Of a DNA stretch of 64,000 nucleotides, positions 4,678 to 34,266 are shown in pieces. Every line of letters starts with the position of its first letter. The stretch's first letter is position 1. Source of the DNA: an uncultured Bacilli bacterium (lineage in GTDB: Bacteria; Bacillota_I; Bacilli_A; RF39; UBA660); contig CAJUCD010000002.1 of assembly GCA_910585045.1 (NCBI GenBank), forward strand, positions 73,829 through 137,828. Reading direction: 5' to 3'. The notes below the pieces were generated by a model, which searched no databases, was not told the origin of the DNA, and saw only the letters and a list, made by a program, of their open reading frames with translations. Made by a program: the position numbers and the translations under genes.

Positions 4678-5464
4678 TATATTATTGTTAGTAAATAATT
4701 TAGATATTGTGAAAGATTTAAAAGAAGAAAGTAATATTACTTTCCTTTTTCCTGTTAGTGAGTTTAGTGTGGGATTTGAAAGAACTTTTAGGGTTGAAGA
4801 GATTCCAGAAGGTTTTATTTTTGTAAATAGAATATTAGATAATGAGGGAATTGAAAAATTTAAGAAATTTATAGGAGCTTTACCTTCTAATATTAAAGGA
4901 ATAGTTTTTGATGATGTAGGCGTTTTAAATGTTTTATTAAAAGTTAATCTTAATATTACAAAAATATTATTTTTAAATCATTTAAATTGCAATTATGAAA
5001 GTGTTAATGCTTATTTAGATTTTGTTGATAGTGTAGTAGTGAGTACAGATATTACTATCGAAGAAATTGATGAGATTTTAAAGAAAGCTAAGAAACCAGT
5101 AGTTTTGTATACTTTCGGTCATATTAATATTATGTATTCTAGAAGAACACTTTTAACAAATTATAATAATCATTTTAAAAAGGATGTTCCAACTATAGCA
5201 GATTTGACAGAAAAAATTAGTGGAAAAAAATTTAAAGCTCAAGAGAGCATTTATGGGACAGTTATATATACAAATGAACCTTTTAATGGTCTAGAATTAC
5301 GAAATAGAGAAAATGTTTTGTTTAATTTAATAAATATGACTTTTTTTACCAATGAGAAAATGCTAGAGATAATTAAGAGTGATAGTAATTTAGAAGATAA
5401 ATATCCCTATAAGTATTTGAGTGCTGAAAAAACAATTGTTAAAATTAGTGATATTAAAGATTAA
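4664..5464 (+). CDS. Peptidase U32 family protein, YrrN-like partner subunit.
   Basis: Position and size match B. subtilis yrrN. It overlaps trmR by 14 nt. Confidence 0.5.
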   Translation: MKKNNILLLVNNLDIVKDLKEESNITFLFPVSEFSVGFERTFRVEEIPEGFIFVNRILDNEGIEKFKKFIGALPSNIKGIVFDDVGVLNVLLKVNLNITKILFLNHLNCNYESVNAYLDFVDSVVVSTDITIEEIDEILKKAKKPVVLYTFGHINIMYSRRTLLTNYNNHFKKDVPTIADLTEKISGKKFKAQESIYGTVIYTNEPFNGLELRNRENVLFNLINMTFFTNEKMLEIIKSDSNLEDKYPYKYLSAEKTIVKISDIKD

Positions 5465-5508
5465 ATTTTTAGAATAGCAATAAGAATGGATATAGTTTGG
5501 AGGCTAAT

Positions 5509-6696
5509 ATGATAGAATTACTAGCACCAGCAGGTAATTTAGATAGACTTAAAATAGCTTATCTTTATGGAGCTGATGCCACATATATTGGAGGATATAA
5601 TTATTCTTTGAGAGCTAATGCAATTAATTTTAGTGCAGAAGAATTAAAAGAAGCAGTAGAGTTTGCACATAGCTTAAATAAAAAAGTTTATGTAACAGTA
5701 AATATTGTACTACATAATAGTGATTTGGCAGGTTTAAAAGAGTATTTATTAGAATTAGAAAGTATAGGGGTTGATGCTGTAATAGTAAGTGATATTGCAG
5801 TTATTAATGTAATTAAAAATAATAATATTAATTTAGAAGTACATGTTTCAACACAAGCTAGTACCTTAAACTATGAGGCAGCTTTATTTTATAAATCATT
5901 AGGAGCTAAAAGAGTGGTTTTGGCAAGAGAGGCTACTAAAGATGATATAAAGATAATCAAAGATAAAACAGGTCTTGATTTGGAATGCTTTATTCAGGGG
6001 GCTATGTGTACTAGTTTTAGTGGGAAATGTGTATTATCAAATGTTGCAACTAATAGAGATTCTAATCGTGGTGGTTGTGCACAAATATGTCGATGGACTT
6101 TTGATATAAATAATGAAAATAATGTATTTAGTATGACACCTAAAGACCTTAATATGGCAGTATATCTAAAACAAATGATGGATATTGGAGTTAATTCTTT
6201 TAAAGTAGAAGGTAGAATGCGTTCGGTTTATTATATAGCAACTGTAATTTATGAATATCGTAATTTGTTTGATAAAATAAAAAGTAATACTTTAACTGAA
6301 AATGACATATTATATTCTAATGATGTCATTAATAGATGTGCTAATAGGGAAAGTGTACCACAATTCTTTGATGGGCAACCAACAGAAAAAGAGCAATATT
6401 ATTTAGGGAGAGATGAAGTTTCTAATCAAGATTTCTTAGGAATAGTATTGGATTCTTTAGAAGATAAGATTTTAATTGAGGAACGTAATTATTTTAAAGT
6501 TGGAGATGAAGTGGAATTTTTTGGGCCAGGAATTGAAACTTTTTCTTATAAGATTGGGGAAATTTTGGATGAGAAGATGGAGTGTATTGAAGTTGCAAGA
6601 CATCCTAGAATGCATGTTTATTTACGACATGATAAGAAACTTCCAAAGGGTACTATGATGCGATTAAAAGTATTTGACAAAAAGATGTATTTGTAG
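5509..6696 (+). CDS. Peptidase U32 family protein, YrrO/PrtC-like (tRNA U34 hydroxylation-associated).
   Basis: ELLAPAGNLDRLKIAYLYGADA is the U32 N-terminal signature. GGAGG sits 5 nt upstream of the ATG at 5509. The ORF-track start at 5497 is a TTG. Confidence 0.8.
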   Translation: MIELLAPAGNLDRLKIAYLYGADATYIGGYNYSLRANAINFSAEELKEAVEFAHSLNKKVYVTVNIVLHNSDLAGLKEYLLELESIGVDAVIVSDIAVINVIKNNNINLEVHVSTQASTLNYEAALFYKSLGAKRVVLAREATKDDIKIIKDKTGLDLECFIQGAMCTSFSGKCVLSNVATNRDSNRGGCAQICRWTFDINNENNVFSMTPKDLNMAVYLKQMMDIGVNSFKVEGRMRSVYYIATVIYEYRNLFDKIKSNTLTENDILYSNDVINRCANRESVPQFFDGQPTEKEQYYLGRDEVSNQDFLGIVLDSLEDKILIEERNYFKVGDEVEFFGPGIETFSYKIGEILDEKMECIEVARHPRMHVYLRHDKKLPKGTMMRLKVFDKKMYL

Positions 6697-6735
6697 TATT
6701 CTTTTGTAGTACAAAATTTATTTCGAGGTGAAAGA

Positions 6736-7203
6736 ATGAAAAAAGAAAATAAAGTAGTATTAACTCCGCAGGGTTATTTGGAACTAGAAGCAGAGTTAAA
6801 TGATTTGAAGTTAAATAAAAGACCAGAAGTAATAAGTTCACTTAAATATGCACGTAGTTTAGGGGATTTATCAGAGAATGCTGATTATGATGCAGCACGT
6901 AATGAGCAAGCTCAATTAGAAAGTAGAATTAAAGAGTTAGAATATAAATTGGAACATTGTGAAATTGTAGATAATAAAGATAAAAATGTTGCTAATGTAG
7001 GTTCTACAATTGTTGTAGAGTATGATGAAGATGATACAGAAGAATTTAAAATTGTAGGTTCTTTAGAAGCTGATCCGTTTAATAATAAGATTTCAAATGA
7101 ATCACCAATAGGTAAGGCTGTTATTGGACATAAAGCAGGTGAAAAAATCATGGTTGATAGTCCAAATGGTTCATATGAAGTGCTTCTTAAGAGTGTTGCC
7201 TAA
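6736..7203 (+). CDS. greA: Transcription elongation factor GreA.
   Basis: The coiled-coil N-domain and the GreA C-terminal signature, including motifs ARSLGDLSENADYDAAR and IGKAVIGHKAGE. RBS GAGGTGA. Confidence 0.9.
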   Translation: MKKENKVVLTPQGYLELEAELNDLKLNKRPEVISSLKYARSLGDLSENADYDAARNEQAQLESRIKELEYKLEHCEIVDNKDKNVANVGSTIVVEYDEDDTEEFKIVGSLEADPFNNKISNESPIGKAVIGHKAGEKIMVDSPNGSYEVLLKSVA

Positions 7204-7319
7204 AAATTTGTTGTAATTTAAAATTAAATATGTTATAATTTTTTAGAACCCAAGAAAATAATCCGCTTATTTTGATAATGATTATTGGTTTAATAAATAT
7301 AGAGAAAGGATGTTGTTTG

Positions 7320-7682
7320 ATGGCAAATTTAGTTGATAAGATTAATAGCAAGCATATCAAAAAAGACATACCAGAATTTCGTGTTGGAGATACTGTTCGA
7401 GTAGACGTATGGGTTAAAGAAGGAAAAAAAGAAAGAATTCAAGCATTTGAAGGTTTAGTAATTGCTAAAAAAGGTGCTGGAATATCTGAGACTTTTTCAG
7501 TAAGAAAAAAATCTGGAGGAGTTGGGGTAGTTCGTGTTTTTCCTGTTAATACTCCTACAATTGATAAAATTGTGGTAATTAAAAAAGGTTTGGTTAGACG
7601 TGCTAAACTTAATTTTATTAAAGATATGCGTAAAGAATATCGTGTTAAAGAAAGAAACGATAGTGTTAAAGCTGAGAATTAA
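7320..7682 (+). CDS. rplS: 50S ribosomal protein L19.
   Basis: L19 motifs FRVGDTVRV and ISETFSVRK. The likely start MANLV has an RBS AGAAAGGA. The track start at 7272 is probably too far upstream. Confidence 0.85.
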   Translation: MANLVDKINSKHIKKDIPEFRVGDTVRVDVWVKEGKKERIQAFEGLVIAKKGAGISETFSVRKKSGGVGVVRVFPVNTPTIDKIVVIKKGLVRRAKLNFIKDMRKEYRVKERNDSVKAEN

Positions 7683-7690
7683 GAAATTAA
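7666..7690 (+). terminator. Rho-independent terminator after rplS.
   Basis: Hairpin GAATTAA-GAAA-TTAATTC followed by T7. Confidence 0.6.
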
Positions 7691-7799
7691 TTCTTTTTTT
7701 CTACCTAAAATTGGAGTATAGATAAGTAAACTAATAAGGAAAAATATTTACTAAATTATAAAAAAGTGGTACTATTAATTCAGGATAAATGGTGATTTT

Positions 7800-8282
7800 A
7801 TGAAAATAGTAAAAAGCTTAATGCCTTACATTGTTATTGTAATCGTAGTTATATTAATTAGAAGTTTTATTGTAACGCCAGTTAAAGTTAATGGTTCTAG
7901 TATGTACCCAACTTTAGATGGTGGAGAAATAATGTTTTTAAATAAACTAGCTAAGCTAAAAAGATTTGATATAGTAGTGTTGCAAATTGATAGAGAAAAT
8001 GAAGATTTAATTAAAAGAATTATTGGTCTTCCAGGAGAAAAGGTTAAGATTTTAAATAATAAAATTTATATTAATGATGAAGTTTTGGAAGATAAATATG
8101 GTTTTGGAGAAACAAATGACATGGATGAGATTACTTTAGCAGATGATGAATATTTAGTTTTGGGTGATAATCGAAAGATTTCTCTTGATTCTAGAGTTTT
8201 TGGAGCAGTAAAAGAAGATGCTATAAAAGGTACTGCAGATTTTGTAATGTATCCATTTAAGAATTTTGGAAAAGTAGAGTAA
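7800..8282 (+). CDS. lepB: Signal peptidase I (S26).
   Basis: N-terminal TM helix, the GSSMYPTL catalytic Ser motif, and the GDNR motif. Confidence 0.85.
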   Translation: MKIVKSLMPYIVIVIVVILIRSFIVTPVKVNGSSMYPTLDGGEIMFLNKLAKLKRFDIVVLQIDRENEDLIKRIIGLPGEKVKILNNKIYINDEVLEDKYGFGETNDMDEITLADDEYLVLGDNRKISLDSRVFGAVKEDAIKGTADFVMYPFKNFGKVE

Positions 8283-8298
8283 ATTTTTGATTAGGTAA

Positions 8299-8754
8299 AT
8301 GGCCATGATAAATAGAATTTTAATGGAATTATTTGATGATTATGAAAAAAATAATGTAGATAGTTTAATAAATTTTACTAATAAAACATTTCCTAAAAAT
8401 GGAACAGATAAACTTTTTATAGGATGTGTTTTAATAATGTTTTCTAGGGCTGTTGGCTTTAAACCAAGATATTATGTCTCACGTGAAAATCTTCTTTCTA
8501 TTGTTTTATCTTCAAAGGAGAAAATAGGAACAACTAATTTATTAGCATTTTATGTAGAGAGAGTAAATACTAAGAAAGGAATTAGTAATTATTTGAAAGA
8601 TGTTGTAAATGATGAAAAACTTGATACATATAGCGATGTAATTATTGACTATTTGGAATATTTTAAACCGCAATTTATAGAAGAATTAAGAATACATAAA
8701 GGTATTGATAAATATGTTAAATATAAATCTATAGAAAAGATTGACAATAATTGA
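8299..8754 (+). CDS. Hypothetical protein.
   Basis: ORF with no recognisable motif. It begins an accessory patch. Confidence 0.35.
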   Translation: MAMINRILMELFDDYEKNNVDSLINFTNKTFPKNGTDKLFIGCVLIMFSRAVGFKPRYYVSRENLLSIVLSSKEKIGTTNLLAFYVERVNTKKGISNYLKDVVNDEKLDTYSDVIIDYLEYFKPQFIEELRIHKGIDKYVKYKSIEKIDNN

Positions 8755-8769
8755 AGATTACTTGGAAGG

Positions 8770-9303
8770 ATGAAGTTGGTGGCAAATAAAAAATTAAATT
8801 TAGATAGTATTAAAATAGTTATTTTTGATTTTGATGATACTTTAGCTATTCATAAAGACAGAGATTATGCAAAACGTCGTATTAAAGATGATAATATTTA
8901 TTTAGATTATTGTTTAAAGGCATATTTAAATCCTGAAATATTTTATGAGACTATAGAACCGTGTTTAGTAATGGAATCATTGCAAAAGTTTATTAAAATA
9001 TGTGAAAAAAGTAACATTAAAATGTATTGCGTATCTAAATTGAAATTTTCTTTTAATTTGAAAGCAAAACAGGCTTTTGTACATAAACATTATAGTACTA
9101 ATATTGAAGTAATATCGTCTGGAACTCAAGAATTAAAATGTGAAGCAGTGAAAATTATTCAGCGTATTAATAAGTGTGATTTAAATGAAATATTATTTGT
9201 AGATGACATGAAAGATAATATTATTAGATTTAAGAATATGGGAATATATGCTTTGTTACCAGAAGAAGTTGATAAATTGATTATAAATATGAAAGATGAG
9301 TGA
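8770..9303 (+). CDS. HAD-superfamily hydrolase-like protein.
   Basis: HAD motif I DxDxT in IVIFDFDDTLA, and motif IV FVDD. Confidence 0.5.
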   Translation: MKLVANKKLNLDSIKIVIFDFDDTLAIHKDRDYAKRRIKDDNIYLDYCLKAYLNPEIFYETIEPCLVMESLQKFIKICEKSNIKMYCVSKLKFSFNLKAKQAFVHKHYSTNIEVISSGTQELKCEAVKIIQRINKCDLNEILFVDDMKDNIIRFKNMGIYALLPEEVDKLIINMKDE

Positions 9304-9722
9304 TAAACGTTATGAAAGATTTAATGAAAACAAATTGTTATGATATTGAAGATACAATGATTATAGTGGGAAGTTGTTTACAAAGAATGCAACCTAAGGC
9401 GTATAATGAATTACAAAAAGTAACTATTAATATTTATGATGTGTGTTTAGAATGTATTCATTTAAATATGGTTATCACAAAGATTATAGGTATGCTTTGT
9501 AGAGTAAATGTTAAGCGTCTGATTTTCGCTTCTGTAGATAAATCGCCGCATTGTGTTCAATTGCATTATATTGAAAATGAGATAAGAAAAGCTATGAATA
9601 TAGACTGTATTGAAATTGTTCATTATGTAGCTATAGATAATGAGCTTATTAAAATAGAAAATGATACAATAAAAAAATCTAAAGCTCTTGGTGAATTAGA
9701 AAGAGAAAAGGTGTTAAATTAG
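9300..9722 (+). CDS. Hypothetical protein.
   Basis: Its start overlaps the stop of the previous gene. No recognised domain. Confidence 0.35.
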   Translation: MINVMKDLMKTNCYDIEDTMIIVGSCLQRMQPKAYNELQKVTINIYDVCLECIHLNMVITKIIGMLCRVNVKRLIFASVDKSPHCVQLHYIENEIRKAMNIDCIEIVHYVAIDNELIKIENDTIKKSKALGELEREKVLN

Positions 9723-9793
9723 ATGAGATAAGTTCTATAAAAATAGATAGGATAAAACCTATTGAAGAAAGAATATTAAATTTATATAGATAG
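9721..9793 (+). pseudogene. Remnant of a paralog of the small ORF at 11031..11309.
   Basis: It translates to DEISSIKIDRIKPIEERILNLYR, which matches DVDEISSIKIDRRKPSNERILDF...ENLYR of the 11031 ORF with an internal deletion. Confidence 0.6.
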
Positions 9794-9803
9794 ATAAATT
9801 GAA

Positions 9804-9869
9804 ATGATTTATTTTTTAAGACACGGTAGTACTGATTGGAATGAAAATTTAAATAATGAGTTAGTTTGA
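9804..9869 (+). pseudogene. Remnant N-terminus of a histidine-phosphatase (phosphoglycerate mutase family) gene.
   Basis: It translates to MIYFLRHGSTDWNENLNNELV then a stop. Compare MIYVTRHGQTNWNLEKK at 46627. Confidence 0.55.
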
Positions 9870-10124
9870 GGGGGTACCAAAAGATGGAAATTATTTGAAT
9901 TTCGAATTAGGAACTGGTAAATTGAAAGAATTTAGTTTTGAAAGATTATAAAAAAATAGATAATCAAAAGGAAGTGAAAAGTTATGGAAAATAATCGACA
10001 AAATCCAATAAATATAAACTGGTTGATTATAATTTAATTAAGAACACCGTAATTTTGGCATTATTTATAATAGGAATTAGATAGGTGATTACGAACTTTA
10101 AGAACATAGAAAAGAGGCGAATAT

Positions 10125-22517: not shown

Positions 22518-23804
22518 ATGTTAGAATATAAACTAATTTTATTTAAAAAGGGGCGAATAAAATTGGAAAAAAGAGTGTTTTTAAAACGGGTAGAGGATAT
22601 TTTAAATACTAAAGATTGGTCGGGCATTGCTAAGAGTTATATTAAGGGAGCAGCTAAATTTGTCTATGAAAATTATGCACCACATGATTATTATAAAGTT
22701 TCAATTTTTAATTATTTAGAAAGATTTCTCTATATTTTAAATAATATGAAGGACTTTAAAGTTGTAGAGTTTGCAGATTTTGGTTTAGAAGTTGAATATA
22801 TGGATTATTTTAGGTCGCAAGTTAGGGTAGCAAATGGAAATGATGGTACTTTAGATATTGTAGATGGTCAATTTGTACCTGCGGTTAGAGGTCGTTATAG
22901 TTGTCCATTGTCTGGTTATGCTGACTTAAATAAAAGAAACGTTTATTTATTAAGTGAAAGTGATAAAGTTTTTCGTCATTTAAATATTGTACATGAACTT
23001 ACACATTTAGATGATGGTAAATATTCATTTCCAGTTGGTAAATTACCTTTTGGAGCAGATTTTAGAAAAATGTGTATAGAAGGTAAAGCAGTTTTTCATG
23101 AAACTTTATTTGGCACTCAAATAGAAGATGGAGCATGGTGTGATAATATTAATGATGAAAAACACCATTTACAAATATATTCTGATTCGTGTTCTTACCC
23201 TTTATATGAAATTTTGTATAAATTATTGATTTTGATTTTCGGGGTAGAGACAATTGAGAAAATGTCTAAAAATACAGATGCAGGACTTAATATGATTGAA
23301 ACTTTAAAAGCAATGTATCCAAATCTTCCAGTTTATGAAATATATGCTCACTTTGTTTATATTTTAGCTATGTTTGATGATAACTCTAAATCATTTATTA
23401 AAAATACTATTAATATTTTTAGAAAATCACAGTATAGTTTATTTTCGCAAGAACAAGCTAATTATAAAAATTATATCCGTGCTTTGAGAGAGTTACATAG
23501 AAATATTATGCAAGCTCAAGATAAAGCTTCATATAATGAATTTAAGAAAATATTTATATTTGCTTTAAAAGAAACTCAAGCATCAAAAGAGAAAATGCTA
23601 GCATTAAAGGATGAGAGTTTAACTTATGCTTTGATGGATATATGTGTTAAAAATGGTGATTTGATAGCATCTTTTGACTTTTTAATAAATGTTGCTAATA
23701 TGGTTATCTTTAGTAGCAAAACAGTTGATGAATCTATGGCTAAAGAGTTAGGTAATATAAGAAATACTTTAATTGAAGCAAGAGAATTAGGTAATATTAG
23801 ATAA
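22518..23804 (+). CDS. Hypothetical 428-aa protein with an HExxH motif (possible zinc-metallopeptidase-like fold).
   Basis: NIVHELTHLDDG, with a downstream Glu candidate in FHETLFG. No clear RBS, so the start is uncertain. Confidence 0.4.
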   Translation: MLEYKLILFKKGRIKLEKRVFLKRVEDILNTKDWSGIAKSYIKGAAKFVYENYAPHDYYKVSIFNYLERFLYILNNMKDFKVVEFADFGLEVEYMDYFRSQVRVANGNDGTLDIVDGQFVPAVRGRYSCPLSGYADLNKRNVYLLSESDKVFRHLNIVHELTHLDDGKYSFPVGKLPFGADFRKMCIEGKAVFHETLFGTQIEDGAWCDNINDEKHHLQIYSDSCSYPLYEILYKLLILIFGVETIEKMSKNTDAGLNMIETLKAMYPNLPVYEIYAHFVYILAMFDDNSKSFIKNTINIFRKSQYSLFSQEQANYKNYIRALRELHRNIMQAQDKASYNEFKKIFIFALKETQASKEKMLALKDESLTYALMDICVKNGDLIASFDFLINVANMVIFSSKTVDESMAKELGNIRNTLIEARELGNIR

Positions 23805-23852
23805 GAAGTATTAGAGAGCTTCTTTTTTTAATTTAAAAATATTTGTTTTTAT

Positions 23853-23882
23853 TGACTTTTAGCTTCGGGGGGGGGGTATAAT
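23853..23882 (+). promoter_or_regulatory. Near-consensus sigma-A promoter TTGACT-N18-TATAAT. The spacer contains a G10 homopolymer, making it a candidate phase-variable promoter.
   Basis: TTGACT at 23853-23858. G10 at 23867-23876. TATAAT at 23877-23882. Flanking inverted repeat AGCTTC / GAAGCT. Confidence 0.55.
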
Positions 23883-23918: not shown

Positions 23919-26042
23919 ATGGTGTTTAAGTGTAAAATGTGTGGTGGTGATATTACCCCTAAACAAGGAACAAATATAGGAATATGTAGTTATTGTAAAA
24001 GTACCATGACTTTGCCTAATTTAGAAGATGAGAAAATAGTAAATTTATATAATAGAGCTAATGATTTAAGACTAGCTAATAGGTTTGATGAAGCAAAAGA
24101 AATATATGAAAAGATTTTATTAATTAATAATGCTGAAATAGAAGCTCATTGGGGAATATTACTTTGTAGATACGGGATTGAGTATGTAGATGATCCTAAT
24201 ACTAATAAGAAAATTCCAACTTGTCATAGAACTATTGATAGTTCAATTTTGGTAGATGCAGATTTTAAATTTATAAAAAAGGAAGCTTATGGTGAAGTTT
24301 TAGAATTATATAAAAATGAAGCTAAAGTTATTGATGAAATTCAAAATGGTATATTATCTATTTCAAAAAAGGAAAAGCCTTATGATGTATTTATATGTTA
24401 TAAAGAGACTGATGAGGCAGGAGAAAGAACTAAAGATTCAGTTATAGCAGAAGATATTTATGATAAATTAGTTCTACAAGGCTTAAAAGTATTTTTTGCA
24501 AGAATTACTTTAGAAAGTAAATTAGGAATGGAATATGAACCTTATATTTATTCAGCTTTAAAGTCAGCTAAAGTAATGTTAGTGGTTGGAACAAAGGAAG
24601 AACATTTTAATGCTGTTTGGGTAAAAAATGAATGGTTAAGATTCTTAGAAATGATGAAAACCAATAAAGAAAAACATTTGATTCCTGTTTATAGTGGTAT
24701 TGATGCTTATAAATTACCAGAAGAATTTGCTATGTTACAAGCTCAAAATATGGATAAAATAGGAGCGATGCAAGATATAGTAAGAGGAATAAAAAAGATT
24801 TTAGATGAATATAAAGATGATTCAGAATATGAGGAAATAAATAAAGAAACTATTGAAAAAGTGGCGGCGGCTATAGGTGATGCCAGAAGTTTAGGAAATG
24901 GTTCTTATGAAGTAACTGTAGTAAAAGAGAGACTTCCTGTATGGTATTACTTGTTAATTAGTGCGACATTTGTTTTTGGTTTTTTCTTTTCATTAATGCT
25001 ATTAAGTAATGAAGTATTTTATCATTTGGTAACAAAAGAAAGCTATAGTGTTATCGACTTAATAAGATATGTTACTGGTAATGGGTTACTAATATTGTGG
25101 GGAATGTTTGTTTTGTTCATGATAATAAGTTTACTTTGTTTTATTATAAATCGTAAAACATTTAAGTTGAGAAAATACTTTTTAATAACAGGGCTATTAA
25201 TTTTTTTAGAGTTTAATATGTTACCTATAAAATATGGTTATATGCCATTTAGATTTCCTTTTGTTTTAAATATTAGAGATTTAGATGGAGTCTTCTTTTT
25301 CTATTTTATATTTGTAACTTTGTTTTTATTATTGTGGTTTATAAAGCCAACTTGGCAAATTAATACTAGTGGAAAAACTTTGATGAATGAAGAAGAAAAA
25401 AATAAACAATTGGCTAAAAATCAAGAAATTAAAAATAATTTTAGTAGAAAAGATGATTCTAAAGTAAATAAAAAATTTCTACTAGGGATATTTTTAACAT
25501 TAGTTGTTTTATTCTTTATTAATATTTATACATCACTAGCAGCTTGTAAAGGTACTAATAAGGATGATACTATAGATCAAGTAGAAATAATGGTAAGCAA
25601 AGAAATGACTAAGTTACCAGGCAGTAAATATTATAATGGACAGGTAAAAAAAGGGGAATTTTATAATTTAATAAATGTAGTTGTTAAAGATAATAAGATG
25701 TATCTAGGAATCAAAAATAAGGCGGGAATTTTTGGTTATATAAATAGAGCTAGTGTGAATATTAATTGTGTTTCTGATAAATGTTTGCAAATGTTTAAAC
25801 AAACAAATGATAGAAATCCAGAAGTAAAACAGCTAATAGTAACAACTGAATATATAAATATTCGTGCTAGTTCATATGCATCTAGTGTCAACTTGGGAAG
25901 GGTTTATAAAGATGAAATATATACTATTTTAGATAAAGCTGGTTATCAAGAAATTTGGTATAAAATAAAAACATCAAATGGAATAGAAGGATGGATTGCA
26001 GGCAGTTTTAATAAAGAAAAAATGGTAGATATTTTAGATTAG
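23919..26042 (+). CDS. Transmembrane TIR-domain protein. It has an N-terminal zinc ribbon, a TPR-like region, a TIR domain, 5 TM helices and C-terminal extracellular SH3b domain(s).
   Basis: CKMCGG...CSYCKS; KPYDVFICYKETD...KVFFARI...VMLVVGT...WVKNEWLRFLE (TIR pattern); the SH3b segment YINIRASS...GWIAGSF. Confidence 0.7.
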   Translation: MVFKCKMCGGDITPKQGTNIGICSYCKSTMTLPNLEDEKIVNLYNRANDLRLANRFDEAKEIYEKILLINNAEIEAHWGILLCRYGIEYVDDPNTNKKIPTCHRTIDSSILVDADFKFIKKEAYGEVLELYKNEAKVIDEIQNGILSISKKEKPYDVFICYKETDEAGERTKDSVIAEDIYDKLVLQGLKVFFARITLESKLGMEYEPYIYSALKSAKVMLVVGTKEEHFNAVWVKNEWLRFLEMMKTNKEKHLIPVYSGIDAYKLPEEFAMLQAQNMDKIGAMQDIVRGIKKILDEYKDDSEYEEINKETIEKVAAAIGDARSLGNGSYEVTVVKERLPVWYYLLISATFVFGFFFSLMLLSNEVFYHLVTKESYSVIDLIRYVTGNGLLILWGMFVLFMIISLLCFIINRKTFKLRKYFLITGLLIFLEFNMLPIKYGYMPFRFPFVLNIRDLDGVFFFYFIFVTLFLLLWFIKPTWQINTSGKTLMNEEEKNKQLAKNQEIKNNFSRKDDSKVNKKFLLGIFLTLVVLFFINIYTSLAACKGTNKDDTIDQVEIMVSKEMTKLPGSKYYNGQVKKGEFYNLINVVVKDNKMYLGIKNKAGIFGYINRASVNINCVSDKCLQMFKQTNDRNPEVKQLIVTTEYINIRASSYASSVNLGRVYKDEIYTILDKAGYQEIWYKIKTSNGIEGWIAGSFNKEKMVDILD

Positions 26043-26058: not shown

Positions 26059-27126
26059 ATGGCATTATTTGAAGTAATAAAAAAAGCAAAAGATGATAAA
26101 AATATTGTTTGGCGATATCCGAAACAGAATTTTAATACAGGATCAAAGTTAATTGTTAATGAGTCAGAAGAAGCGCTGTTCTTTTCTTGTGGTGAAGCCT
26201 TAGATTTATTTGGGCCTGGTAGATATACATTAAATACTAATAATATTCCTTTATTAAGAAGATTATTAGATATTCCAACAGGTGGAAAAACTTCTTTTAC
26301 AAGTGAAGTGTATTTTATTGATAAAACTGTTAGGCAAACAAAATGGGGAACATCATCAAAATTAGAGTTTTTGGAACCAATCTATAAATTTCCTATACAA
26401 ATTGGAGCATGTGGAGAAATACGTTTTGAAATTGAAGATTCTCGAAAATTGTTAGTAAAGCTAGTAGGCATTAAACGAAATTTTGATATTAATAATATAG
26501 ATGATTTTTTTGCTAATCAAATACTTGTGAAGGTTAAAGCTTATTTGACGGGAATAATTAAAGAAGAAAAAATAAGTATTTTTGAGATTGATGAAAAATT
26601 AGATAAAATAAGTAGAGAATTAAAAGAATTATTAAAAAATGATTTTCAAGAATTTGGCATTAAAATAGATAATTTCTTTTTAAGTAATATTGCAAAGCCT
26701 GAAGATGATAAACAATATCTAAAATTTAAAGAGTTATACTTTAAAAAAGGAGTTTTAATTGCAGATGTACAATTAGATAAAGAAATATCAGATATTGAAG
26801 CAGAAAAAGAGGCTAGTAGAATAGGAATTACGGCAAAAGGTATAGCTACAAAAAGAAAAACAGAAGGTTATTCTTATCAAGAGGAAAAAAGCTTGGAGAT
26901 TGGTAAGGAAGTGGCTAGAAATGAAGCAATGGGACAATTTACTAATATTGGAGTTGGTCTGGGTGTAATGAGTGGTACTTCAAATGTTTTAGGAAGTGAA
27001 GTTACAAAACAGGTTCAAGGAGCTTTTATGAATTTGAATGAAAAATTTTGTTCTTATTGTGGACAGAAACTTAATAATGAAGCACTATTTTGTTTTAAGT
27101 GTGGAAAGAAGGTAAGTGATGAGTAA
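26059..27126 (+). CDS. SPFH/band-7 domain protein with a C-terminal zinc ribbon (COG4260, virion-core-protein-like family; same family as B. subtilis YdjI).
   Basis: The N-terminus MALFEVIKKAKD...IVWRYP...FGPGRYTLNTNNIPLL is typical of COG4260. C-terminal zinc ribbon CSYCGQKL...CFKCGKK. Confidence 0.65.
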   Translation: MALFEVIKKAKDDKNIVWRYPKQNFNTGSKLIVNESEEALFFSCGEALDLFGPGRYTLNTNNIPLLRRLLDIPTGGKTSFTSEVYFIDKTVRQTKWGTSSKLEFLEPIYKFPIQIGACGEIRFEIEDSRKLLVKLVGIKRNFDINNIDDFFANQILVKVKAYLTGIIKEEKISIFEIDEKLDKISRELKELLKNDFQEFGIKIDNFFLSNIAKPEDDKQYLKFKELYFKKGVLIADVQLDKEISDIEAEKEASRIGITAKGIATKRKTEGYSYQEEKSLEIGKEVARNEAMGQFTNIGVGLGVMSGTSNVLGSEVTKQVQGAFMNLNEKFCSYCGQKLNNEALFCFKCGKKVSDE

Positions 27127-28360
27127 GAGTACTAAGATTATATTGTTAGTTGGGGTGTTGTCTTTTATTGTTTTTTTAGTAGTAGCATATTTTCATTATC
27201 AAGGTAGTTCAGATATAGTATTTTTGACCTCAAAAGATTCTTATGCAGATAATTATGCTAAAAAGCATTTTTTGGATGTTGAATATGTTTCTAATATGGA
27301 AAAGAATAAGTATCAAAGAAAATTAGAAAATTTTGATTATAAAATTGATAAGGGAATTACTATTACAGGTTATAAAGGTAAAAGTTCAAGATTAGTAGTG
27401 CCAGCTGTTATTAGGGGCATAAAAGTTTTAGAAATAGAGGCAGATATATTAAATAATAAAAATATTGAAACATTAGTATTATCTAGTAATATAGAAAAAA
27501 TAGATAAAGAAAAATTTAAGAGTGTTAATATTGAATGTTTTGCTAATTCTTTTTGTTTAGAGTTAAAAGAAACAGATGGCATGAATGTAACAATTTTAGA
27601 TGATTCAGAATTTGTAGATTTTAATAATTATTTAGATGAATATGCTTATGAGTTAAATGATGGCCAAGTAGAAATTATAAGGTATGATGGTCAAGATTCT
27701 TATCCAATAATTCCTAATACTATCAATGGTTATCAAGTTAAAACTATAACTTTTGCGGCTAATAATATTAAAGGTATATATATTCCTGATACAGTAGATT
27801 ATATAGGAAATAACTTTATTATGAAGCATTTAAATAGAACGTATTTAACGGTGGTTTTAGGTAATTTAGGGGCTTTGATAATATTTGTAGTTGTAAATAT
27901 ATTTAATAAGAGTAAAAAATTAGAAGAGATAAGCGCTAATTCAATTATTAGTATTATAAGTATAATATATTTAGGAATTATTTATTATTTTTCTTATAAT
28001 ATAAATATATTTTTAGACTATAAATGGTATATTATAAAGACATTAATCGGAACATTTATTTATATTTTACTCATAGTTTCTCTTTATTTAGGATTAAGTA
28101 ATAGAAAGAAATATACTAGTAGTATTAAATATAAAAAAGAGTTTTTAAATGAAACATTAAATTTGTTAGATGATGTTGATTCAAATGATGAATATAATTT
28201 AAGAGAGTTAATTAGATATTCAGAACCAATATCTACTGACCAAGTAAAAGATATAGAATATAAAATCCTAGAATTAATTACAAATATAAGTAAAGATAAT
28301 GTAGAGGAAATAAAAAAGCTTATTAAGAAAAGAAATAATGTTTTAAAGCAAAATAAATAA
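27116..28360 (+). CDS. Membrane protein with an extracytoplasmic BspA-type leucine-rich repeat region, 3-4 further TM helices and a C-terminal coiled-coil tail.
   Basis: BspA-LRR-like spacing: ITITGYKGKSSRLVVPAVIRGIKVLEIEADIL...IIPNTINGYQVKTITFAANNIKGIYIPDTVDYIGNNFI. Overlaps the SPFH gene by 11 nt. Confidence 0.5.
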   Translation: MMSKSTKIILLVGVLSFIVFLVVAYFHYQGSSDIVFLTSKDSYADNYAKKHFLDVEYVSNMEKNKYQRKLENFDYKIDKGITITGYKGKSSRLVVPAVIRGIKVLEIEADILNNKNIETLVLSSNIEKIDKEKFKSVNIECFANSFCLELKETDGMNVTILDDSEFVDFNNYLDEYAYELNDGQVEIIRYDGQDSYPIIPNTINGYQVKTITFAANNIKGIYIPDTVDYIGNNFIMKHLNRTYLTVVLGNLGALIIFVVVNIFNKSKKLEEISANSIISIISIIYLGIIYYFSYNINIFLDYKWYIIKTLIGTFIYILLIVSLYLGLSNRKKYTSSIKYKKEFLNETLNLLDDVDSNDEYNLRELIRYSEPISTDQVKDIEYKILELITNISKDNVEEIKKLIKKRNNVLKQNK

Positions 28361-28382
28361 GTATCTTAATTGATACTTTTTT
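28359..28382 (+). terminator. Rho-independent terminator ending the TIR/SPFH/LRR transcription unit.
   Basis: Hairpin AAGTATC-TTAATT-GATACTT followed by a T-run. Confidence 0.6.
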
Positions 28383-28409
28383 AAATATTTTAAAATTAGC
28401 AGTTATATA

Positions 28410-28438
28410 TTGACAAGTGCTAAGCATAATATTATAAT
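28410..28438 (+). promoter_or_regulatory. Consensus sigma-A promoter of the hrcA operon (TTGACA-N17-TATAAT).
   Basis: Exact -35 and -10 hexamers with a 17-nt spacer. Confidence 0.7.
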
Positions 28439-28442
28439 GGTA

Positions 28443-28469
28443 TTAGCACTGAAGGTTAGTTAGTGCTAA
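28443..28469 (+). promoter_or_regulatory. CIRCE operator (HrcA binding site).
   Basis: TTAGCACTG-N9-TAGTGCTAA, compared with the consensus TTAGCACTC-N9-GAGTGCTAA. Confidence 0.8.

Positions 28470-30040: not shown

Positions 30041-30054
<14 letters not shown>
29491..30054 (+). CDS. grpE: Nucleotide exchange factor GrpE.
   Basis: GrpE coiled-coil and the C-terminal beta-domain motif MRPAMV. Confidence 0.85.
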
Positions 30055-32423
<2,369 letters not shown>

Positions 32424-32472: not shown

Positions 32473-34266
32473 ATGGCAAAATTAAGAGAAGATTATGAAG
32501 AAAAGTTAAAGTGGAATGTTAAAGATTTGTTTGCATCTGAAGATGATTATTTAAAGATGGTTGATGAATTAAGTTCTTCATTAGAAAAGTTTAAAGTTTT
32601 TAAAGGTAAATTATTAAGTAGTGCTAAGACATTGTATGATTTTTTGAGTTTTGATAATAACTTTAATAGTAATTTAGAACAAGTTTATATTTATGCTCAT
32701 ATTCAAAATGACCAAGATACTACTAATACTAAGTATCAAGCGATGTATGGTAAAGCATATAAATTATATGAGCGATATAATGAAGAAACAGCTTTTGTTA
32801 TTCCAGAATTATTAAAAGGTGATTTTAGTACTATTAAAGAATTTATAAAAGAATGCAAAGAATTAGAAGATTATGAACGAGAACTAAAAGATATTTTTAA
32901 GTTTAAAGCTCATACTTTAAGCGATGAAGAAGAACGATTATTATCATCACTATCTAGTGCATTTAAAACTCCTGATGATGTTTTCTCGATGCTTACTGAT
33001 GCAGATTTGAAATTTGGAGATATTGTTAATGAAGATGGTAAAAGTGAAGAATTAACAGAAAAAAGTTATCGTAAATTTATTGAAAGTAGTAATCGTAATG
33101 TAAGAAAGAAAGCCTTTAATAAATTATTAGAGACTTATGGTAATTATAAAAATACTTATGCGTCTTTATTAGCAAGAGAAGTAGGTCTTAATAATAAAAA
33201 AGCTGAAATAAGACATTATGGTAGTGCTTTGGAGTCTTCTTTATATCGTAATGATATTCCAGTAGAAATATATGATAATTTAGTAAATTCAGTAAAAAGA
33301 AATGTTAAGCCTTTATCTATGTTTTGGAATTTAAAAAAGAAAGCCTTAGGAGTTACTAAATTGCATTTATATGATGCTAATGCGCCAATAACTAAGATGG
33401 TTACTCATCATTATAGTGTAGATGAGGCTAAAGATTTATTAATGAAATCTTTGAGACCTTTAGGCGAGACTTATTTAAATGACTTGAACCGAGCTTTTGA
33501 AGAAAGATGGATAGATTTTTGTTCAAATGATGGAAAGAGAAATGGAGCTTATTGTACAGCTTGTTATAATGTGCATCCTTATGTATTATTAAGTTTTGAT
33601 GGTTCACTTAATAATGTTTCTACTTTAGCTCATGAACTTGGGCATGCAATGCATTATCATTATGCTATTAAAAATCAAAAGTATCAAGATTATGGTTATT
33701 CTATTTTTGTAGCAGAGGTAGCTAGTCAAGTAAATCAGATTTTGCTTAGTAAATATTTAATTAGTAAATCAAGTGATAAAGAAGAAAAAAAGTATTTAAT
33801 TGATGATTTAATTAGAGATTTTAAAGCAACAATTTATCGTCAGACAATGTTTGCAGAATTTGAAAAATTAATTCATGAAAAAGAAGCTAGTGGAGAAATA
33901 CTTACTTATGATGTTATGTGTGATATTTATTATAATTTGAATAAGGAATATATGGGACGTAATATTGTAGTTGATGATGTTATAAAATATGAGTGGGAAA
34001 GAGTTCCTCATTTCTATATGAATTTTTATGTGTATCAGTATGCCACTGCTTATGCGGCAGCAATTAAAATTGCTCAAGATATATTGAATAATAAGTCTGG
34101 GGCAGTAGAGAAATATTTAGAATTTTTAGGTTTAGGTTGTACTAAAACTCCTATTGATTCTTTACTAGTTGCAGGTGTTGATATGACTAAGCAAGAAACT
34201 TTAGATGAAGCATTTAAATATTTCTTGGAACTAGTAAAAGAGTTAGAAAATCTATATAATGAATAG
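32473..34266 (+). CDS. pepF: Oligoendopeptidase F (M3B).
   Basis: M3 signature HELGHAMH and a length of about 600 aa. Confidence 0.85.
   Translation: MAKLREDYEEKLKWNVKDLFASEDDYLKMVDELSSSLEKFKVFKGKLLSSAKTLYDFLSFDNNFNSNLEQVYIYAHIQNDQDTTNTKYQAMYGKAYKLYERYNEETAFVIPELLKGDFSTIKEFIKECKELEDYERELKDIFKFKAHTLSDEEERLLSSLSSAFKTPDDVFSMLTDADLKFGDIVNEDGKSEELTEKSYRKFIESSNRNVRKKAFNKLLETYGNYKNTYASLLAREVGLNNKKAEIRHYGSALESSLYRNDIPVEIYDNLVNSVKRNVKPLSMFWNLKKKALGVTKLHLYDANAPITKMVTHHYSVDEAKDLLMKSLRPLGETYLNDLNRAFEERWIDFCSNDGKRNGAYCTACYNVHPYVLLSFDGSLNNVSTLAHELGHAMHYHYAIKNQKYQDYGYSIFVAEVASQVNQILLSKYLISKSSDKEEKKYLIDDLIRDFKATIYRQTMFAEFEKLIHEKEASGEILTYDVMCDIYYNLNKEYMGRNIVVDDVIKYEWERVPHFYMNFYVYQYATAYAAAIKIAQDILNNKSGAVEKYLEFLGLGCTKTPIDSLLVAGVDMTKQETLDEAFKYFLELVKELENLYNE

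Follow-up and report, generated by a model that had tools for sequence, protein, structure and literature searches.

A conserved gene module pairing a soluble SPFH protein with a TIR receptor-like membrane protein in uncultured Bacilli and other gut Firmicutes

In a stretch of 64,000 nucleotides (nt) from an uncultured Bacilli bacterium (contig CAJUCD010000002.1 of assembly GCA_910585045.1, positions 73,829 to 137,828; hereafter the window), a gene for a 355-amino-acid (aa) SPFH protein lies between two genes for membrane proteins. Judged from its gene neighbourhoods, this SPFH gene is the constant part around which a widespread membrane module of three genes is built in gut Firmicutes. In the window it stands second in a closely packed operon of three genes, which runs from a promoter at 23852 to a terminator at 28389 and encodes, in the 5' to 3' direction, a zinc-ribbon-TPR-TIR protein with five transmembrane (TM) segments and an SH3 domain (TIR707), the SPFH protein, and a four-TM protein (dn414) of a family here called P1. 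At a rough probability of 0.5, the three proteins would form a membrane complex in which the SPFH protein serves as a cytoplasmic scaffold that organises and gates the receptor-like TIR protein as its client, by analogy with B. subtilis YdjGHI.

Conservation and co-occurrence of the three genes

The neighbourhood of the SPFH gene was compared across the 80 best-scoring of at least 592 matches of a profile of SPFH homologs to species-representative genomes. A complete SPFH open reading frame (ORF) was present in 77 of these loci, and the ORFs around it (called by a greedy longest-ORF rule) were searched with the window's proteins and with hidden Markov models (HMMs) of the families. P1 was found in 71 of the 77 loci, a protein with a zinc-ribbon (ZnR) head within four genes in 68, and both in 63, many of the loci that lack one of the two partners being contig ends; the TIR version of the ZnR-head protein occurred in 30 of the 77 and in all 14 of the window's Bacilli clade, percentages that are approximate because the loci were selected as the best SPFH matches and the ORF rule is a simple one. 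When the neighbours were clustered without supervision, SPFH proteins were recovered in 77 loci, P1 in 70, TIR-type ZnR-head proteins in 38 (49 proteins) and non-TIR ZnR-head proteins in 36, after which the next recurrent family was a small serine recombinase (nine loci). The reverse test, which started from six TIR-head genes chosen solely for their long contigs, found SPFH and P1 immediately upstream in all six. The coupling of the SPFH gene to a zinc-ribbon-TIR gene, which an earlier note on this DNA had read from the window, is therefore borne out in the clade, in the wider survey and in the reverse direction.

All 14 loci from metagenome-assembled genomes of related uncultured Bacilli (SPFH identity 53-66%) have one to three tandem TIR707-like genes before the SPFH gene and a dn414-like gene after it. 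The identical locus was found in many assemblies of the window's own species, for which additional strains were obtained via exact-protein look-ups. More distant genomes (SPFH identity 42-48%) comprise Clostridia and single records labelled Synergistaceae, Holophagales, Anaerolineaceae and others, and there a P1 protein of 220-235 aa starts -52 to +21 nt from the end of SPFH. Start/stop overlaps or gaps of a few nucleotides at the SPFH junction were seen in 72 loci, and between genomes with unrelated flanks the nucleotide similarity found by BLAST was limited to the module.

A copy of the module is also carried by a plasmid, the 20.5-kb pNP21 of Butyrivibrio fibrisolvens D1 (NZ_CP146965.1, L097 in our locus set), at 4925-10053. 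A recombinase, SPFH, P1 (its gene broken up by a short duplication) and a ZnR-head protein without TIR make up this copy, which adjoins hsdS (the S subunit of a restriction-modification system) and a YoeB/RelB toxin-antitoxin pair.

The SPFH protein

26059..27126, + strand: gene 2, soluble SPFH/Band_7_1 protein of 355 aa (ORF, Pfam, hydropathy, homolog alignment, structure model)
26107..26724, + strand: SPFH (Band_7_1) domain, aa 17-222 (Pfam)
27049..27102, + strand: C-terminal zinc ribbon, C331/C334/C345/C348 (cysteines invariant in the alignment, sub-threshold Pfam matches)

The gene opens with an ATG, preceded by the ribosome-binding site AGAGG, and its start lies 17 nt past the stop of the TIR gene (23919..26042, which ends 16 nt ahead); the termini of the product are MALFEVIKKAKDDKNIVWRYP...FGPGRYTLNTNNIPLL and CSYCGQKL...CFKCGKKVSDE. 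In these respects the description in the earlier note was accurate, and its assignment of the protein to a COG4260-type SPFH family with a C-terminal zinc ribbon agrees with the profile match, the invariant cysteines and the fold match. Band_7_1 (PF13421) matches residues 17-222 over profile positions 1-204 of 211 (E=5.5e-38, 131.1 bits, cutoff 24), and Band_7 (PF01145) matches with E=2.7e-8. At residues 328-352 the Pfam families Zn_Ribbon_1, Zn_ribbon_3 and DZR are all sub-threshold, Zn_Ribbon_1 falling just under its cutoff of 25 (residues 330-352, E=3.8e-5, 23.8 bits), and all four cysteines are invariant in the 14 homologs aligned. The ribbon is single in the window's protein and double in most homologs, of which there are at least 1955 protein clusters at E<=1e-3; no model for the protein was found in NCBIfam or PADLOC.

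The AlphaFold model is of moderate quality overall (pLDDT 69), with values of 70-90 in the SPFH core and helix and low values in the Gly-rich linker GQFTNIGVGLGVMSG, which is invariant across homologs (pattern GQFTNxGVGLGxMSG). By Foldseek the model resembles human stomatin, prohibitin and flotillin and E. coli HflK/C (265-307 columns, E 1.9e-9 to 1e-6), and a sequence search of the PDB with the protein found no detectable entry. Going by the model, the protein has an SPFH alpha/beta fold followed by a long C-terminal helix, i.e. the fold of ring- and cage-forming SPFH proteins, and it is without a membrane anchor of its own, as hydropathy analysis of the protein found no TM segment or hydrophobic stretch. 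With HflK/C-FtsH, stomatin, flotillin and prohibitin it would thus share the fold and, as a concept, an oligomer that encloses or organises a client membrane protein. It differs from the known cage and ring assemblies in that it lacks a TM or hairpin anchor and a sequence-detectable relative in the PDB, and in that the proposed client is a TIR protein instead of a protease or channel.

The TIR receptor-like protein

23919..26042, + strand: gene 1, TIR707, 707-aa Zn-ribbon-headed transmembrane TIR protein (ORF, Pfam, hydropathy, positive-inside topology, head model)
23931..23996, + strand: N-terminal zinc ribbon, C5/C8/C23/C26 (invariant cysteines, hhalign, HMMs)
24369..24818, + strand: TIR domain, aa 151-300, with E238 at nt 24630-24632 in the motif AVWVKNEW (Pfam, Foldseek, profile alignment)
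24951..25526, + strand: five-TM block, fast-evolving (hydropathy, identity comparison)
25854..26009, + strand: bacterial SH3 (SH3_3) domain, aa 646-697, in the predicted extracellular tail (Pfam E=3.9e-8, topology)

The predicted topology of TIR707 comprises a cytoplasmic head (aa 1-320), five TM segments (aa 345-536) and a tail (aa 542-707); in the window's clade the K/R-rich loops between the five segments fit the positive-inside rule, which places the SH3 tail outside. The N-terminal ribbon is of the CxxC...CxxC type, with all four cysteines invariant in both alignments made (A4 and A5), and the ZnR-head HMMs match TIR and non-TIR partners alike, so the ribbon is common to all ZnR-head third components. 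A structure model of residues 1-320 (pLDDT 88) comprises the zinc ribbon, a TPR-like helical pair, a beta-hairpin/helical unit, the TIR domain and a long exit helix. The TIR domain is matched by TIR_2 (E=7e-10, 39.8 bits, cutoff 28), and the top Foldseek matches of the head are SARM1, TIR-STING, TIR-1, AbTir, MAL and SPARTA. In a sequence search of the PDB, designed TPR proteins crowded out other matches to the whole head; the search was rerun with a TIR-only profile, which aligns E238, at weak E-values (0.1-0.3), with the glutamates of TcpB 'WPARE' and flax L6 'WCLME', the catalytic ones of these proteins. E238 is invariant in the 26 and 35 homologs of two alignments, and NADase or cyclase activity of the head is plausible on these alignments.

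Only the first ~300 residues of TIR707 are conserved over long range (E ~1e-105 to 1e-119). Between phyla the TIR head is 47-55% identical (mean column identity 64%), and within the clade the identity amounts to 59-74% for the head, compared to 23-34% for the TM block and 16-36% for the ectodomain, which suggests a receptor-like protein with a conserved cytoplasmic head and fast-evolving membrane and outer parts. Clostridial TIR members have a cytoplasmic head of ~540 aa, one TM segment and an ectodomain of 230-400 aa or none (L060 and L066 are tail-anchored without ectodomain); the variable ectodomains include SH3, DUF6273, RCC1, RHS and LRR_5. The TIR-head family counts at least 3475 clusters, annotated merely as 'TIR domain-containing' or 'TPR repeat' protein.

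With SARM1, AbTir, TcpB/BtpA, Thoeris ThsB, TIR-STING and SPARTA the head shares the TIR fold and a Glu at the catalytic position of W-x-x-x-E. These enzyme systems come without SPFH or P1, whereas the window's head carries a ribbon, TPR-like and beta-hairpin extension not seen in them and a membrane tether; the PADLOC models of the known TIR defence systems do not match the head, the one PADLOC match being a weak, generic one to the candidate PDC-S66 (E=2.6e-4). In architecture only, a variable ectodomain, a TM region and a cytoplasmic TIR (together with a P1 partner whose ectodomain is possibly of LRR type) recall Toll-like receptors. Unlike in those, the TIR domain is N-terminal, the homology is limited to TIR and there are five TM segments in the window's clade.

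At aa 520-541 (25476-25541), TM5 with the preceding KVNKK and the following LAAC resembles an internal lipoprotein signal peptide. Lipoprotein-type cleavage at this lipobox was rejected: LAAC is unique to the window's species among 20 clade homologs and, not being conserved, is probably incidental.

The P1 protein and the non-TIR third components

27119..28360, + strand: gene 3, dn414 (P1 family), 413/414-aa membrane protein (ORF, hydropathy, family alignment)
27200..27835, + strand: extracellular insert found only in the Bacilli clade; perhaps a BspA-type LRR of one or two units (alignment)
27794..28357, + strand: P1 core, three TM segments and cytoplasmic tail (alignment with the 220-235-aa proteins 3' of SPFH)

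The two lengths of dn414 correspond to its two possible starts, i.e. GTG 27116 in the ORF list and ATG 27119 in public gene calls. It is predicted to consist of TM1, an extracellular insert of ~200 aa, TM2-TM4 and a cytoplasmic helical tail with the motif RYSEPIS (nt 28214-28234) ... KKRNNVLKQNK. Its core aligns with the 220-235-aa protein directly 3' of SPFH in 70-71 of the 77 loci, by which the P1 family is defined: four TM segments and a cytoplasmic helical tail with RYSDPMS...ERNxKCKxLK, for which no model was found in Pfam. A single-sequence search with the P1 tail among 1.84 billion representatives returned 41 proteins, mostly of the clade-specific long form, because the family diverges too fast for searches of this kind. 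The idea that the dn414 ectodomain is a BspA-type LRR was set aside, since its support is sub-threshold only: LRR_5 is matched by four of nine homologs (best E=9e-6) and by the window's protein below the cutoff (E=0.0017), and hhalign gives 16% probability against a true LRR_5 region.

In one strain (L087:4061-5167, corresponding to window position ~28223), a G-to-T change creates a nonsense codon in the tail motif (RYS*PIS), which truncates the dn414 homolog to 368 aa and constitutes a natural knockout allele.

The third components that lack TIR open with a related ribbon (MKQLTCEMCGS..FVCQxCGxKYS) and continue as TPR, Ank, BspA-type LRR or unannotated regions.

Operon layout and boundaries

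23852..23882, + strand: operon promoter, TTGACT (-35), spacer tttagcttc+G10 (19 nt here), TATAAT (-10) (sequence reading, regex comparison across assemblies)
28354..28389, + strand: hairpin and U-run, probable intrinsic terminator of the three-gene operon (RNA folding)
28410..28469, + strand: hrcA promoter TTGACA-17-TATAAT (12/12) and CIRCE-like inverted repeat TTAGCACT..AGTGCTAA; a boundary, outside the module

The -10 element ends 36 nt ahead of the ATG of the TIR gene, with an AAAGGAG ribosome-binding site in between. Genes 1 and 2 are separated by 16 nt, which hold a ribosome-binding site, and genes 2 and 3 overlap by 8 nt, the ATG of dn414 lying within the SPFH stop region (junction ATGAGTAA); the three genes are translationally coupled. 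The hairpin at the 3' end is stable for its composition (-8.6 kcal/mol, z=-3.6, none of 200 shuffles as stable). It is followed by the perfect promoter of hrcA and by the inverted repeat, which we liken to CIRCE on the basis of the consensus familiar from HrcA regulons. Given the terminator and these signals, the SPFH operon and the hrcA-grpE-dnaK operon are separate units. Adjacency to hrcA is limited to the window's species and was found in none of the 14 related-Bacilli loci, so that conservation beside hrcA independent of the TIR gene, which the earlier note had named as evidence against its reading, is not what the genomes show; co-regulation with hrcA was rejected on the non-conserved adjacency together with the separate transcription signals.

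Directly 5' of the operon lies a 428-aa ORF (22518-23804), for which no homolog beside the module was found in other species. It was rejected as a fourth component, having no match in Pfam, NCBIfam or PADLOC and being conserved only within the species. In the heat-shock operon downstream, a 182-aa ORF (30041-30589, no Pfam match) splits grpE and dnaK, and an M3 oligoendopeptidase gene (32473-34266) stands between dnaK and dnaJ. Further upstream, the segment 18174-18414 is strain-variable: the window has only a 66-aa remnant ORF between an XRE-type regulator and an ABC transporter, and some assemblies have a 432-aa gene (no Pfam match) at the same site (L001:1058-2356 and L003:1059-2357). The GC skew of the window is strong and uniform (~+0.2 to +0.5) and nearly all genes are on the + strand, from which it follows that the window lies on the leading strand; the skew of the 64 kb gives no sign of an island of foreign composition around the operon.

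Apparently phase-variable expression

23867..23876, + strand: poly-G tract (G10) in the promoter spacer, candidate slipped-strand switch (tract length comparison across assemblies)
Inverton segments in other loci (recombinase and GTGTAC-core repeats):
L027:3405-3536
L040:9828-9960
L043:9827-9959
L053:9827-9960
L079:9818-9978
L032:9801-9952
L038:955-1102
L102:3752-3903

Expression of the operon looks phase-variable from the DNA sequence, by a poly-G spacer here and by DNA inversion in Clostridia. No other G/C run in the 64 kb (27% GC) exceeds 5, and chance alone would yield ~0.002 runs as long as this G10 tract. Among 12 assemblies of the species whose flanks are identical, three have G9, seven G10 and two G11 (lengths from assemblies, not reads), and the -35/-10 spacer is accordingly 18, 19 or 20 nt. 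No poly-G tracts were found 5' of the TIR genes in related species. A scan of a metagenome collection for the poly-G promoter flank gave 0 matches, which means that the window's species is absent from that collection.

Several Clostridial loci have a small serine recombinase (Pfam Resolvase, 1.2e-27) directly 5' of SPFH, and inverted repeats with a common GTGTAC(C)TTTT core bracket a segment of 102-131 nt between the recombinase and SPFH genes. In four co-linear loci, the outer flanks of which are 95-99% identical, the inner segment matches between two pairs solely as the reverse complement, with an inverted identity of 79-86% versus a background of ~63%, and BLAST reports the same inverted match. 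The promoter within the segment (TTGAAA-17-TATAAT) points to SPFH in two loci and away from it in one. That one module has two unrelated switching devices argues for selection on its ON/OFF expression, such as acts on functions that are costly or exposed at the surface. The module thus resembles known contingency loci and invertons in that the homopolymer in the window's promoter spacer varies between strains and that its relatives have a recombinase and repeats around a promoter, in both orientations; it differs in that the target genes are centred on SPFH, which was not found in the searchable literature on invertons and phase variation. Both kinds of switching are classically tied to surface structures (PMC11892184, PMC11868660).

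Beside the invertons, patches of 100-160 nt with 77-90% identity occur ~2.6 kb 3' of P1 (L040:14439-14596 and patches in L027, L043, L053 and L079), in flanks that are otherwise unrelated among the inverton-bearing loci; such a patch could be a second site for recombination, or else a further ZnR-head gene may begin (5' end) here. In several Clostridial loci a divergent XRE-type helix-turn-helix regulator stands just 5' of SPFH (L100:3810-4118, L101:1146-1478, L103:3811-4119), which could provide a third way of controlling the module.

Comparison with YdjGHI

The earlier note had likened the SPFH protein to B. subtilis YdjI. All comparisons with the B. subtilis locus were made on database sequences. 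By Pfam the proteins of that locus are PspA (PspA_IM30), YdjG (Zn_Ribbon_TF), YdjH (TPM_phosphatase) and YdjI (Band_7_1 plus Zn ribbon). The relation to YdjI holds, as the two proteins share a Pfam family and an architecture (soluble SPFH, long helix, low-complexity linker, zinc ribbon), with 22% identity over 235 aa, across the SPFH domain (BLASTP, E=4e-14). P1 and YdjH are unrelated (hhalign probability 0.35%), and between the TIR head and YdjG the first zinc ribbon alone aligns (43 columns, 87% probability).

In B. subtilis, YdjG and YdjH are required to bring the soluble YdjI, and via YdjI also PspA, to the membrane; YdjH binds YdjI, and the pspA-ydjGHI operon is under a sigma-W stress promoter (PMC8581546). 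YdjGHI has since been renamed SamGHI, with further recruitment data (bioRxiv 10.64898/2026.02.06.704340), and a comparative survey of Psp systems covers YdjG/H/I without a TIR- or P1-linked variant (PMC11237479). Compared to this system, the window's module likewise has an SPFH protein of the Band_7_1 family that is soluble and carries a low-complexity linker and a C-terminal ribbon, and it too has two membrane partners of which one is ribbon-headed. The differences are that pspA is missing, that YdjH (TPM) is replaced by the unrelated 4-TM RYSDPMS-tail family and YdjG (two zinc ribbons, NTF2-like domain, TM) by ZnR-TPR-TIR or other polymorphic proteins, that the gene order is another, and that control appears to be phase-variable instead of by a sigma-W promoter. 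As judged by family membership and gene content, the module is therefore of YdjGHI-like organisation (a soluble ZnR-bearing SPFH protein with two membrane partners, one ZnR-headed), outside the Psp-linked system.

A link to PspA and envelope stress, the other half of the earlier proposal, did not survive the searches. B. subtilis PspA had 0 phmmer matches among the ORFs of the 64-kb window and 0 within four genes in the 77 loci, and no YdjH/TPM homolog was found within four genes of SPFH in those loci. Altogether, the searches of the window and the 77 neighbourhoods with PspA, YdjG and YdjH gave just two weak zinc-ribbon matches, and the link was rejected.

Proposed mechanism and alternatives

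For the scaffold-plus-client reading, the following sequence of events may be envisaged. P1 and/or the zinc-ribbon head would dock the SPFH protein under the membrane, much as YdjG and YdjH recruit YdjI (PMC8581546), and the docked protein could then oligomerise, by analogy with its superfamily, into a microdomain that concentrates or sequesters TIR heads. Interchangeable ZnR-headed clients would be served by the common SPFH-P1 core, with TIR clients in ~40% of the loci and Ank, BspA-LRR or other modules elsewhere. TIR enzymes act only once assembled into oligomers, and SPFH assembly would therefore gate TIR activity. The gated activity would be NAD+ cleavage or a nucleotide signal, triggered by surface events that are sensed via the variable ectodomains. 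The most likely role would be a surface-triggered, TIR-mediated growth arrest or defence response, which is also the least supported step; phase-variable expression fits a surface-exposed, conflict-related or costly function. Of the earlier idea that SPFH is an assembly platform for the TIR protein, the coupling of the genes stands, and a platform of this kind, which would hold the TIR heads, is the reading favoured here.

Several points weigh against this reading. Interaction among the three proteins and TIR activity are both drawn from analogy, and oligomerisation of the SPFH protein is assumed from the superfamily, for a protein whose model is moderate. The likeness to YdjGHI comes down to one common family and a short zinc-ribbon similarity, YdjH and PspA being without counterpart. 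TLR15 and TLR2, which are non-enzymatic animal TIRs, align equally well at the position of E238, and enzymatic activity of the head is therefore no more than plausible. TIR is missing from over half of the modules, and its chemistry therefore cannot be what the module does in general. The survey percentages are, as said, approximate. Differences in the G tract could partly be homopolymer assembly error, and the two orientations of the inverton come from different genomes, not from a single population. A defence role, finally, found no support from PADLOC models or from a phage-related context, and around the operon in the window stand housekeeping genes.

With regard to defence, the 5027 PADLOC models gave 0 matches for the SPFH and P1 proteins of the window and five other loci, and the TIR proteins matched only the generic PDC-S66, weakly (E=2.6e-4 and 9e-4). 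Clustering of the neighbours of the 77 loci found no recurrent defence genes, and no homolog of the module was found in 50,697 phage records. The searchable literature, including that on COG4260/PF13421, holds no description of this module or of an SPFH-TIR, SPFH-defence or SPFH-inverton association. The statement of the earlier note that SPFH proteins recur in antiphage islands thus found no support, neither from PADLOC for any component nor from a relevant paper. These results bear on the possibility, which partly overlaps with the biological role proposed above, that the module is an antiphage abortive infection system, in which phage adsorption or injection would be sensed by the variable ectodomains or by parts in the membrane, TIR would then deplete NAD+ or signal, and SPFH-P1 would restrain TIR until that trigger. 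Such a system would account for the Glu at the catalytic position and the NADase-type structural neighbours of the TIR head, for the polymorphic third component and its tandem paralogs (up to three copies), for phase variation and a natural nonsense allele, and for module-limited similarity between genomes and a plasmid copy beside hsdS and YoeB/RelB. It is nevertheless unlikely, given that PADLOC yields nothing beyond generic TIR/repeat noise, that defence neighbours, phage homologs and support in the searchable literature were not found, that a TIR head with ~50% identity across phyla and 64% mean column identity is more conserved than is usual in a defence protein, that the context in the window is housekeeping, and that neither TIR nor another recognisable effector occurs in over half of the modules. 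Rather unlikely, too, is a surface-display platform, in which the ZnR-headed proteins would be phase-variable adhesins or antigens, SPFH-P1 microdomains would cluster, stabilise or quality-control them and TIR would serve for self-association. The ectodomains are typical of surface binders of gut bacteria (SH3b, BspA-type LRR, RCC1, RHS, DUF6273), many clients are without TIR, SPFH proteins scaffold microdomains, and homopolymer and inverton switching is of the classically surface-linked kind (PMC11892184, PMC11868660). Yet the strongest conservation is in the cytoplasmic head and not in the ectodomain, the catalytic-position Glu and its motif are invariant over 60 sequences, and L060 and L066 have no ectodomain at all.

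It is improbable that the module is a Psp-like envelope-stress system, in which SPFH would recruit a PspA/ESCRT-III-type protein encoded elsewhere, TIR and P1 would act as anchors and the proximity to hrcA would reflect a stress role. This explanation could draw on the family and architecture shared with YdjI, on the ZnR-headed partner resembling YdjG, on the position of the operon directly 5' of hrcA in the window's species and on the recruitment of YdjI by YdjG/H and of PspA by YdjI (PMC8581546). However, PspA was found neither in the window nor within four genes in the 77 loci, a TPM/YdjH homolog was not found either, the identity to YdjI is 22%, hrcA adjacency is missing in 14 of 14 related species with separate terminator and promoter/CIRCE signals between the units, and ON/OFF phase variation and natural knockouts would be unusual for a homeostatic repair system. 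As long as the link consisted of a 16-nt spacing in one genome, the SPFH gene could also have been an independent housekeeping gene that fortuitously stands between a TIR and a membrane-protein gene; with linkage across Bacilli, Clostridia, Synergistota, Holophagales and other records, in both search directions and with tight junctions in 72 loci, this is hardly credible.

Implications

SPFH proteins are universal and few of them have a defined client, and TIR domains lie at the heart of immunity in every domain of life. The locus described here links an SPFH protein to a membrane TIR protein, and with it the YdjI/Band_7_1 family acquires, outside Bacillus, specific partners that are conserved as a set. 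Two unannotated families are also defined by the locus, namely the 4-TM P1 proteins with their RYSDPMS tail and the ZnR-TPR-TIR heads, which number at least 3475 clusters. Relative to the searchable literature and to PADLOC the module appears to be new, as a YdjGHI-type SPFH recruitment with a TIR-bearing, receptor-like client and apparently phase-variable expression. Tentatively, and as a possibility to be held well short of the scaffold-plus-client reading, it may represent an unrecognised membrane signalling or immunity device that is widespread in gut Firmicutes (thousands of protein clusters), in which SPFH and a 4-TM adaptor would serve interchangeable receptors, with TLR-style TIR enzymes whose oligomerisation, and with it their NAD+ chemistry, would be gated by an SPFH microdomain, and with two independently evolved ON/OFF mechanisms. 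The mechanism that is suggested, an SPFH scaffold gating TIR assembly, is testable, and a cultured carrier, Butyrivibrio fibrisolvens D1 with plasmid pNP21, makes experiments feasible. Phase-variable control of such a module would also bear on how strain-level variation in gut metagenomes is to be read.

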